NCBI RefSeq assembly: GCF_030384885.1
Contig: NZ_CP128613.1
Reading direction: 5' to 3' (one strand)
From: Escherichia coli
GTDB lineage: Bacteria; Pseudomonadota; Gammaproteobacteria; Enterobacterales; Enterobacteriaceae
DNA length: 64,000 nt
Part shown: in pieces, positions 1,530 through 62,116 of the stretch
Layout: each line of letters begins with the position of its first letter
Position numbering within the stretch: the first letter of the stretch is position 1
Made by a program: the position numbers and the translations under genes
The notes under the pieces: generated by a model
What the model was told of the DNA's origin: nothing
Databases searched by the model: none
What the model saw: only the letters and a program-made list of their open reading frames with translations

Positions 1530-1702
1530 CAAGTTCTTTTGCGTTGCATTGCTGGCGTAAATGTCAGCAATGCAGCATTTCCTCACGATTCTTCTTTGAC
1601 GATCGCACTTTTTGCTCGTTATGATGGCGTCGCTAGCCTCAGTAAATCCTTACTCCGGCGGTGCGCAACCTGTGCGCGTGAACCACTATCTGAATGCTCA
1701 TC

Positions 1703-2637: not shown

Positions 2638-2820
2638 GTAGGCAGGATAAGGCGTTTACGCCGCATCAGGCATTCGGAGCACGATGCCTGATGCGATGCT
2701 TGCGCATCTTATCAGGCCTACAAACGTGACGCGTCCGTAGGCAGGATAAGGCGTTCACGCCGCATCCGGCATTCGGTGCACGATGCCTGATGCGATGCTT
2801 CTATTTGCATCAGGCATCCA
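2638..2820. repeat. REP/BIME cluster (at least two REP units) between convergent pbpG and dld
   Basis: Duplicated ggcaggataaggcgtt(t/c)acgccgcatc(a/c)ggcattcgg...gatgcctgatgcgatgctt units. Confidence 0.85.
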
Positions 2821-22071: not shown

Positions 22072-22182
22072 ATATTCATCCCTGAAATGTATTAATGAAA
22101 TAAACGATATTTTACGCGCAATAAATGTTTGGCGCATTAGTTGTTTGAGCGGAAAATATCTGGAAAGCAGATCACAGTAAAT

Positions 22183-22265
22183 AAAAAAACCTGCTGGTGA
22201 GGCAGGTTCTTTTATTTACTACTTTCAGGCCTAACACCACGGCCTGTGCAACATCGTGTTCCAAC
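22183..22265 (-). ncRNA. orzO: OrzO-like type I antitoxin sRNA (boundaries estimated)
   Basis: Minus-strand -35 TTGCAA (22295-22300), 17-nt spacer, -10 TATAAT (rc of 22272-22277); intrinsic terminator at 22182-22214; 5' ~20 nt (rc of 22246-22265) complementary to toxin 5'UTR 22412-22431 with one mismatch. Confidence 0.6.
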
Positions 22266-22271
22266 GAACGA

Positions 22272-22322
22272 ATTATAACCATCGGTGGACCCCGTTGCAA
22301 TTAAGATAATGAGATTTATAAT
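22272..22322. promoter_or_regulatory. Divergent overlapping sigma70 promoters for the antitoxin sRNA (-) and the toxin mRNA (+)
   Basis: Palindromic TTGCAA serves as -35 on both strands; + strand -10 TATAAT at 22317-22322 places the TSS near 22330. Confidence 0.55.
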
Positions 22323-22503
22323 CCTGACTGTTGGGACGTTGCGCCGGATCGAACCCATTTCAAGTCCTGGCTACCGGACGGGTGGTGCCGCAGGTAGTGC
22401 CCTGATCCGGAGTGCAACATCGTGGTCCAACATACGTAAACCAGTATCGACAGGCAGTGTAAGGGTAAGATGCTGGTGTTGCGCTCCTTAATAAGGAGAG
22501 CGG

Positions 22504-22593
22504 ATGGACACGCTGACACAAAAGTTAACCGTGCTCATTGCCGTACTGGAGTTATTAGTGGCTCTGTTACGGCTGATTGATTTGTTGAAGTAA
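22504..22593 (+). CDS. zorO: Type I toxin, ZorO-like 29-aa hydrophobic peptide
   Basis: ATG at 22504 preceded by SD AAGGAG; translates to MDTLTQKLTVLIAVLELLVALLRLIDLLK; ~174-nt 5'UTR; recognised from memory as ZorO/ZorP family (which paralog is uncertain). Confidence 0.75.
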   Translation: MDTLTQKLTVLIAVLELLVALLRLIDLLK

Positions 22594-22616
22594 CGGGCAA
22601 ATTGAAACGCATCTAA

Positions 22617-22641
22617 GGGGGAAAATACCGCTTCCCCCTTT
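22617..22641 (+). terminator. Hairpin terminator downstream of the toxin ORF
   Basis: gggggaa-aataccgc-ttccccc stem-loop followed by a U-rich tract. Confidence 0.5.
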
Positions 22642-22759: not shown

Positions 22760-22972
22760 GCGAAAAATATCTGGAAACCAGATCGCGGAAAATAAAAAAA
22801 CCTGCTGGTGAGGCAGGTTCTTTTATTTACTACTTTGACGATAACTTGCTGATTGTGCAACATTTCGTACCAACGAGTAAATTATAACCATATCCACACT
22901 CCATTGCAATTCAGTGAGTGAGATTTATAATCCTGCCCCTTGGGAGGTTGTGCCGGATCGGACCAATTTGAA
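22760..22972. repeat. Copy 2 of the repeat; truncated toxin-antitoxin unit with no toxin ORF
   Basis: Homology to copy 1 ends about 15 nt before the yehK stop codon; terminator and both promoters conserved. Confidence 0.85.
22793..22876 (-). ncRNA. Second Orz-like sRNA gene (OrzP-like), apparently orphan
   Basis: Minus-strand -10 (rc of attata 22882-22887) and -35 ttgcaa 22904-22909; terminator at 22793-22825; 5' pairing region diverged (gtgcaacatttcgtaccaac). Confidence 0.5.
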
Positions 22973-22986
22973 TTATTTAGAGTATA

Positions 22987-23304
22987 TTATTCTATTTCTT
23001 GGTTGAATATGTTCTGTAGTTCACGATTAAAAATGGCTATTACCGTTTCTGGTGATTCACCTCGTAATTTTCGCTCATCAATAAATTCATCTCTTATATA
23101 AATCAACGCATCATTTATTAGCGGGTCGGCATCTTCTCCATCACGTTGATGAAATGTTGGACGTAGCCGGAATCGTTCCTGTCGATAGACGGAACCTGTA
23201 AATAATTCAGAGCATTTATGGATCTCAAGTCTGAAGGAAAACGGATCTTCAGGTACAGGGACTTCATAATCATAAGTAGCGACCAGCTCTTTTTGCACGA
23301 TCAT
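22987..23304 (-). CDS. yehK: Uncharacterised protein YehK (105 aa)
   Basis: 105-aa ORF 60 nt downstream of yehI on the same strand. Confidence 0.8.
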   Translation of the reverse strand: MIVQKELVATYDYEVPVPEDPFSFRLEIHKCSELFTGSVYRQERFRLRPTFHQRDGEDADPLINDALIYIRDEFIDERKLRGESPETVIAIFNRELQNIFNQEIE

Positions 23305-45574: not shown

Positions 45575-45667
45575 TTTCACAACGTTATTGTAATCCCGCC
45601 GTTTTTCCTCGTTTACAACGTGTGCGCGGGACATTACCATCCATCTCTGCGATTCATCATCGCAACC

Positions 45668-45790
45668 AAACGACTCGGGGTGCCCTTCTGCGTGAAGGCT
45701 GAGAAATACCCGTATCACCTGATCTGGATAATGCCAGCGTAGGGAAGTCACAGACCACCAGGTCATTGCTTCTTCACGTTATGGCAGGAG
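45668..45790 (+). ncRNA. TPP (thi-box) riboswitch in the thiM leader
   Basis: cgactcggggtgcccttctgcgtgaaggctgagaaatacccgtatcacctgatctggataatgccagcgtagggaagtc matches the thiM TPP aptamer; expression platform runs to the SD of thiM. Confidence 0.9.
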
Positions 45791-61945: not shown

Positions 61946-62032
61946 AAAAAATAAGCCCGTGTAAGGGAGATTACACAGGCTAAGGAGGTGGTTCCTGGTA
62001 CAGCTAGCATTTTATGGGTTATGTTTTTCAGC
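61946..62032 (-). ncRNA. cyaR: CyaR (RyeE) Hfq-dependent sRNA
   Basis: Minus strand reads GCTGAAAAACATAACCCATAAAATGCTAGCTGTACCAGGAACCACCTCCTTAGCCTGTGTAATCTCCCTTACACGGGCTTATTTTTT, matching CyaR including its terminator, as recalled. Confidence 0.9.
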
Positions 62033-62116
62033 GAAACGGATGATAACCTTAATAAATGCAGCTGTATGTGATCGGTTTCTAAGAATTTTCCATCCGGGAA
62101 AAATAATCGAAATTAA

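Follow-up and report, generated by a model that had tools for sequence, protein, structure and literature searches.

The 51 bp at positions 22272–22322 of the window, by which is meant the whole 64,000-nucleotide stretch of Escherichia coli DNA analysed here, are best explained as the core promoter of the zor-orz locus, in which a single palindromic hexamer, TTGCAA, would dock RNA polymerase facing either way, the two orientations being mutually exclusive and the interference between them modest; we put the probability of this reading, taken as a whole, at roughly 0.8. The shared-hexamer architecture is real and already published, and the idea that two polymerases compete for it is a plausible hypothesis. 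The features that enter the argument are as follows, the first nine belonging to the full copy of the locus and the last three to a second, shortened copy.

22182–22265, minus strand: orz sRNA gene of copy 1, an OrzP-type antitoxin RNA of ~84 nt (placed by Rfam and the onset of pairing, with the 3′ end by K-12 homology)
22272–22277, minus strand: −10 hexamer TATAAT of the orz promoter (consensus scan; invariant in 14/14 copies; 99.8% in Shore 2024 Table 3)
22278–22294, minus strand: 17-nt spacer of the orz promoter (consensus scan; 11/17 positions vary, length constant)
22295–22300, either strand: palindromic TTGCAA, the −35 hexamer common to both promoters (invariant in 14/14 copies)
22301–22316, plus strand: 16-nt spacer of the zor promoter (consensus scan; 4/16 positions vary, 0 indels)
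22317–22322, plus strand: −10 hexamer TATAAT of the zor (toxin) promoter (invariant in 14/14 copies; 100% in Shore 2024 Table 3)
22330–22503, plus strand: 5′ UTR of the zor mRNA, 174 nt (the ATG at 22504 minus the published UTR)
22412–22431, plus strand: Orz pairing site in the zor 5′ UTR (direct repeat D3, 22246–22270 and 22412–22436)
22504–22593, plus strand: zor toxin ORF of 29 aa, MDTLTQKLTVLIAVLELLVALLRLIDLLK (ORF translation; the same peptide as in the O157:H7 zorO copy)
22793–22874, minus strand: orz sRNA gene of copy 2, OrzO-type, an orphan (Rfam; ends by homology with copy 1)
22881–22931, no strand assigned: second three-hexamer core (ATTATA 22881–22886, TTGCAA 22904–22909, TATAAT 22926–22931)
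22939–22969, plus strand: 31 nt left over from a zor 5′ UTR (beyond GGACCAATTT, the sequence no longer aligns with the O157:H7 zorO copy)

Read directly and scanned against the σ70 consensus, the core has the form ATTATA-N17-TTGCAA-N16-TATAAT, its letters being ATTATA ACCATCGGTGGACCCCG TTGCAA TTAAGATAATGAGATT TATAAT. On the plus strand, TTGCAA (22295–22300), a spacer of 16 and TATAAT (22317–22322) together match the σ70 consensus at 10/12 positions; on the minus strand, TTGCAA (22300 to 22295), a spacer of 17 and TATAAT (22277 to 22272) likewise score 10/12, and both spacings lie within the 16–18 bp that serves as the criterion for a σ70 promoter. Between the two −10 hexamers, whose centres are 45 bp apart, there is a single TTGCAA, which is its own reverse complement; both −10 hexamers are perfect, whereas the shared −35 matches the consensus at only 4/6 positions. 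The consensus scan finds an extended −10 (TGn) in neither promoter, and all other −35 registers score 3/6 or less. The initial annotation had described back-to-back promoters with these hexamers, coordinates and spacers around one palindromic −35, and that description proves to be exact.

The arrangement is rare in the surrounding DNA. With at most one mismatch allowed, the same pattern occurs twice in the 64-kb window, at 22272–22322 and at 22881–22931, against 0.00 expected by chance from 100 dinucleotide shuffles. Across all 64 kb these are also the only two divergent promoter-like pairs with overlapping −35 elements, the shuffle mean for such pairs being 0.36 at a score of at least 9/12 and 0.01 at a score of at least 10/12. 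A scan of genome contigs for the exact architecture returned at least 120 loci, with none from Escherichia among the matches listed; all of these are chance matches, in AT-rich MAGs, Firmicutes or archaea.

The region around 22272–22322 is the zor-orz type I toxin–antitoxin locus described by Fozo 2010 (PMC2887945) and Wen 2014 (PMC3919570), specifically the yehL-proximal, OrzP-type copy. The locus sits here between yehL and yehK, as judged by the RefSeq annotation of the identical record and of O157:H7; Fozo 2010 (PMC2887945) places the family between yehI and yehL. The 901 bases around the core are 100% identical to E. coli 2013C-4282, and related sequence is present in 5,234 of the 5,426 complete E. 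coli genomes. Rfam model RF02083 (OrzO-P; gathering score 60) matches the minus strand at 22183–22258 with 98.9 bits and at 22794–22867 with 90.6 bits, both matches lying directly downstream of their respective minus-strand promoters. The assignment of the minus-strand promoter to an sRNA is borne out by the OrzO-P match immediately beyond it, and the −35 and −10 have also been published for orz; equally, the assignment of the plus-strand promoter to a toxin gene holds, as the ZorO ORF begins 174 nt past the predicted start, which is the published length of the UTR.

The encoded peptide, MDTLTQKLTVLIAVLELLVALLRLIDLLK, is identical to the product of the yehK-proximal (zorO) copy of O157:H7, and its ORF is preceded by an AAGGAG ribosome-binding site, as in Table 3 of Shore 2024 (PMC11264685). 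The full copy in this genome carries an OrzP-type sRNA and target, yet its peptide is of the ZorO type (T at residue 3). Toxicity of Zor on overproduction and its repression by the cognate Orz have been shown experimentally for the EDL933 genes only. The zorO ORF (22504–22593) is absent from the RefSeq annotation of both this strain and O157:H7, because NCBIfam has no model for the 29-aa toxin.

Start positions for this strain were transferred by homology from O157:H7 and K-12 data. Fozo 2010 (PMC2887945) used primer extension to locate the starts of the two mRNAs and of the two sRNAs, and the zorO 5′ UTR is 174 nt long (Wen 2017, PMC5397157). Counting back from the initiation codon (22504 − 174) places the zor start at G22330, the eighth nucleotide past the −10, and the same arithmetic applied to the O157:H7 zorO copy gives the same geometry. 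For the sRNA, Wen 2014 (PMC3919570) describes a continuous 18-nt stretch at the 5′ end of OrzO that pairs with zorO, uses ‘the first 18 nt of orzO’ for chimeras, and reports that the complementarity shrinks to 15 or 12 nt when 3 or 6 nt are trimmed from that end. In the window, complementarity to the zor UTR starts at a G, the seventh nucleotide past the minus-strand −10, at 22265 in copy 1 and 22874 in copy 2, and the orz start was set at G22265 from this onset. The 3′ end of K-12 OrzPmg lies at 2204485(+) by Term-seq (Adams 2021, PMC7815308 supplement), and the distance to it from the predicted start at 2204402 gives a length of 84 nt, in agreement with the northern band of ~85 nt that Fozo 2010 (PMC2887945) reports for Orz. 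The orz and zor starts are 65 bp apart. Both of these homology-transferred starts fall 7–8 nt past their respective −10 hexamers, where 6–9 nt would be expected of a σ70 promoter, and there is no conflict with the hexamers of the initial annotation; the supplements of Cappable-seq, SMRT-Cappable-seq and Kim 2012 hold no entry at the K-12 coordinates.

A second Term-seq 3′ end lies inside OrzPmg, at K-12 2204446(+) (~22221 in the window) and ~45 nt from the start, which points to a processed form or a shorter version of the sRNA. The 3′ end of copy 1 orz (22182) is 111 nt upstream of the RefSeq start of yehL (22071), and the consensus scan of the minus strand over 22072–22182 finds no other promoter-like site; in Adams 2021 (PMC7815308), 2204485(+) is classed among the 3′ ends upstream of an ORF (yehL, −111). 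Transcription that continues past the Orz terminator might feed into yehLMPQ, and this would be a possible reason for the persistence of orz promoters in toxin-less strains. The Orz terminator hairpins (22188–22208 and 22799–22819) also score as plus-strand terminators, because T-runs flank them on both sides. The zor gene's own hairpin (22616–22639) is followed only by a weak T tract, and the copy 2 Orz hairpin could also halt read-through from the upstream zor.

The pairing between sRNA and mRNA that defines the system is retained in the full copy. The 5′ end of copy 1 Orz (the reverse complement of 22246–22265) is complementary to 22412–22431 in two runs, of 13 and 6 nt, on either side of a single mismatch (duplex energy −40.3 kcal/mol), and it accords with the rule of Wen 2014, which asks for at least 15 nt of continuous pairing, or for 17 nt or more where one mismatch lies within. 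Against the same site, the copy 2 sRNA (22793–22874) shows perfect complementarity over just 9 nt, and because this is below the published threshold for repression, the OrzO-type sRNA of copy 2 appears to have no cognate toxin in this genome.

The second core, which does not figure in the initial annotation, lies 609 bp downstream of the first. In copy 2 the toxin gene is deleted, and the remnant of its UTR runs directly into yehK; judged from its sequence, copy 2 is an orz-only locus as defined by Shore 2024 (PMC11264685), where such loci are described as retaining 27–29 nt of UTR. With one full copy and one orz-only copy, this genome is in the ‘1.5 copies’ state (a full locus plus an extra orz) that was found in 6/2,212 genomes (Shore 2024, PMC11264685). 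The orphan zor promoter of copy 2 is intact, with its −35 at 22904–22909 and its −10 at 22926–22931 (region 22881–22975, with 773–860 in the K-12 locus, L003, as its counterpart), and any output from ~22939 would read antisense into yehK (22987–23304, minus strand); the base at the usual zor start is C in copy 2 and G in O157:H7. The consensus scan finds no plus-strand terminator past the orphan zor promoter and before 23200, and the K-12 Term-seq tables list no minus-strand (antisense-yehK) 3′ ends in the region equivalent to copy 2.

The deletion junction of copy 2, GGACCAATTTGAATTATTTAGAG (22960–22982), is identical in K-12-type orz-only loci (L003 853–875), and the K-12 UTR remnant is P-type-like proximally and orphan-like distally. 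The ‘1.5-copy’ state may be an intermediate from which recombination between the two UTR stubs gave the ‘0.5-copy’ state of K-12, a reading prompted by the shared junction and dependent on only one or two diagnostic bases. Below the Rfam threshold, the copy 2 orz (22790–22874) also matches ohsC_RNA (28.5 bits) and the Salmonella sRNA STnc370 (30.4 bits), mostly via a common terminator hairpin, AACCUGCC...GCAGGUU, and there are hints here that the orz, ohsC and STnc370 RNAs are related. Elsewhere in the window, Rfam matches above the gathering threshold are to the CyaR sRNA (61949–62034, minus strand), a TPP riboswitch (45666–45762, plus strand), naRNA4 (2641–2718, plus strand) and the Peptidase-S11 RNA motif (1618–1698, plus strand).

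Conservation of the core was assessed over 14 copies, drawn from eight further E. coli records as well as the window and anchored on the Orz terminator rather than on the promoter; they span the P, O and Q locus types and comprise eight distinct core sequences. The three hexamers have 0/18 variable positions, against 15/33 in the two spacers (Fisher p = 3.6e-4, a value that overstates independence because the 14 copies are mutually related). The variability is distributed as 11/17 positions in the orz spacer and 4/16 in the zor spacer, and 56/133 positions vary elsewhere in 22209–22359. None of the 14 copies has an indel inside the 51-bp core, whereas the sRNA body does show indels. This pattern agrees with a survey of 2,439 loci, in which the −35 was conserved at 99.4% and the −10 at 100% for zor and 99.8% for orz (Shore 2024 Table 3, PMC11264685). 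As a palindrome matches both strands automatically, conservation of TTGCAA cannot show that it is used by both promoters; the fixed length of both spacers would be the better argument that both registers matter. Within the spacers, the bases adjoining the −10 hexamers are invariant in all paralogue types: ACCA at 22278–22281 (TGGT upstream of the orz −10) and TGAGATT at 22310–22316, just ahead of the zor −10. In the orz spacer, the part near the −35 is highly variable.

Region 4 of σ contacts the −35 hexamer in the major groove, and the footprint of an open complex extends from about −55 to +20. In the mechanism that we propose, σ70 RNA polymerase would dock on TTGCAA in either orientation: the one with the 17-bp spacer would yield the ~84-nt Orz antitoxin RNA from G22265, and the one with the 16-bp spacer would yield the zor toxin mRNA from G22330. 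Either orientation would rely on the identical six base pairs, with ~46 bp (about 22275–22320) common to the two footprints; given the shared site for σ region 4 and these overlapping footprints, only one polymerase at a time could, on steric grounds, be accommodated on the region. The split between antitoxin and toxin would be set by spacer length together with the flanking sequence, and the antitoxin should be favoured because the orz spacer has the optimal 17 bp. Expression would be constitutive in both directions, with orz favoured and with cross-interference that is at most modest under basal conditions. The decisive, documented control of ZorO acts at later steps: the Orz 5′ end pairs with the zor 5′ UTR, the duplex is cut by RNase III, and the zor 5′ UTR has to be processed, exposing the EAP region, ahead of translation. 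The known control of ZorO is post-transcriptional (Wen 2014, PMC3919570; Wen 2017, PMC5397157).

The initial annotation went on to propose that competition between the two polymerases would couple toxin and antitoxin transcription, and this is a reasonable suggestion. The size of the interference is not predictable from the sequence, because the −10 hexamers are perfect but the −35 is only 4/6, and a −35 of this quality may yield too little occupancy for coupling. In the model of Bendtsen 2011 (PMC3167631), the output of a promoter drops with the occupancy time of its partner, and not with the partner's strength; in the accompanying synthetic test, a consensus competitor represses ~4-fold, and either one −10 change or two −35 changes in the competitor abolish interference. 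Additionally, at five native bidirectional promoters with a shared −10, no competition was seen at basal activity, strong competition appearing only once one side was improved or activated (NAR 2026, PMC12825309).

Several other readings of the core have to be set against this one. It is improbable that only one of the promoters uses TTGCAA, with the other relying on its consensus −10 and neighbouring contacts and with the palindrome being a by-product. Conservation cannot separate the users, since the palindrome gives the opposite strand a free −35 match, and the conserved blocks adjoining the −10 hexamers (ACCA/TGGT and TGAGATT) could supply the contacts that the other promoter requires; however, the spacers are fixed at 17 and 16, without indels across three diverged paralogue types and with 11/17 positions varying in the orz spacer, and neither promoter has the TGn of an extended −10 or an alternative −35 register above 3/6. 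It is highly improbable that the main role of the palindrome is to bind a dimeric transcription factor in control of both genes. The palindrome is perfect and invariant over 6 bp, the O-type copy extending it to 8 bp (ATTGCAAT), and a response of expression to carbon source has been reported, but 6–8 bp is too short for a typical dimeric operator, the flanks are asymmetric, and a −35 role fully accounts for the spacing of exactly 16 and 17 bp to the two consensus −10 hexamers. The core was also scanned for CRP-like sites, with no match above chance.

The remaining readings accept that TTGCAA is shared and differ over the consequences. Strong coupling, with polymerase on orz repressing zor and vice versa such that transcription of the two is anticorrelated, deserves some weight, although we consider it unlikely. 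The −35 is shared and the footprints overlap, occupancy could be high given the consensus −10 hexamers and near-optimal spacers, and overlapping promoters do compete once one side is strong (PMC12825309, PMC3167631); furthermore, Fozo 2010 (PMC2887945) has Orz RNAs abundant in exponential phase and dropping in stationary phase, and the literature describes an effect of carbon source on the expression of both genes. The growth-phase changes could equally reflect RNA stability, however, and both lines of precedent cited above point the other way: the five native shared −10 promoters lacked competition at basal levels (PMC12825309), and a two-base weakening of the −35 was enough to end interference in the synthetic system (PMC3167631), the −35 here being 4/6. 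A more far-reaching version, in which either/or docking fixes the toxin:antitoxin ratio, produces anticorrelation in single cells and acts as a noise or bet-hedging device for a persistence-linked toxin, the orphan zor promoter being kept for the same purpose, strikes us as doubtful; were it true, the orphan zor promoter (in copy 2 and in K-12) would tune orz output or drive antisense RNA into yehK. Mutual stimulation, whereby the negative supercoils behind each polymerase help the partner promoter to open, is quite improbable. The twin-domain supercoiling model is established. Reciprocal stimulation at divergent promoters is mentioned in the abstract of the preprint of Warman et al., and other papers report that divergent promoters depend on supercoiling, but the shared site bars simultaneous initiation, so that stimulation could operate only between successive rounds.

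The reading that we prefer, mutually exclusive docking with modest interference, builds on an architecture whose elements have appeared in print. The predicted −35 and −10 are marked in Figure 1A of Wen 2014 (PMC3919570) and Figure 1A of Wen 2017 (PMC5397157), and Table 3 of Shore 2024 (PMC11264685) has one row, ‘−35 (TTGCAA)’, with 99.4% for Zor and Orz alike; both entries must be the same hexamer, because the core has only one TTGCAA. Text searches of Wen 2014 and Shore 2024 turned up no treatment of the sharing of the −35, whether as overlap, competition, interference or in terms of polymerase, and the zor-orz papers searched yielded no experiment in which one promoter is inactivated and the output of the other followed. 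A 2025 review raises promoter interference for divergent type I loci in general terms, and regards the regulation of zorO-orzO as yet to be elucidated. The zor-orz locus is a well-studied chromosomal type I system linked to growth in aminoglycosides, and its known regulation is all post-transcriptional. Reciprocal interference, if true, would add a transcriptional layer that sets the antitoxin:toxin ratio, and the core would be a natural shared −35 counterpart to the shared −10 bidirectional promoters.

The λ promoters PR and PRM are likewise divergent, with close starts, and polymerase bound at one of them affects how open complexes form at its partner; there, the starts are ~82 bp apart, the −35 hexamers are separate, and the repressors CI and Cro dominate. 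The aroP promoters P1 and P3 are another overlapping divergent example, and polymerase at one of them can repress the other. The closest known systems are zorO-orzO and zorP-orzP of O157:H7 EDL933, which represent the same locus, between yehL and yehK/yehI, and share with the present one the hexamers, spacers, 29-aa toxin, sRNA family, 174-nt UTR geometry and pairing, and from which it differs in having one full copy and an orz-only copy of the OrzO type. The type I systems shoB-ohsC and tisB-istR-1 are also divergent: in both, as in zor-orz, the sRNA does not overlap the toxin gene, and 18–21 nt at the 5′ end of the sRNA pair with the long 5′ UTR of the toxin. Unlike zor-orz, shoB-ohsC does not share its −35, the shoB −35 (GTGACC) lying 70 bp from the ohsC −35 (TTGTAA), and its starts are ~143 bp apart. 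A weak minus-strand match, TTTACA/16/TAGCAT, does overlap the ohsC −35, but it was rejected as evidence of a shared hexamer at shoB-ohsC, the published shoB promoter being 70 bp away. For its part, tisAB is controlled by LexA and has no listed −35 (Shore 2024, PMC11264685).

Bidirectional promoters that share a −10 (preprint of Warman et al., 2020; PMC12825309) likewise use a symmetric element to which binding is exclusive. There, it is the −10 that serves both directions, with starts 7–25 bp apart (mode 18), whereas in zor-orz it is the −35, and 65 bp separate the starts, which places the core outside the class; indeed, separate divergent promoters are explicitly excluded from it (NAR 2026, PMC12825309). 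By comparison, the overlapping divergent class of Bendtsen 2011 (PMC3167631) is defined by a reverse start between −80 and +20 relative to the forward start, and orz, at −65, falls inside it. About 14% of the forward promoters of E. coli belong to that class, for which no shared hexamer is needed; the full coincidence of the two −35 hexamers at zor-orz is a special case of such overlapping divergent promoters.
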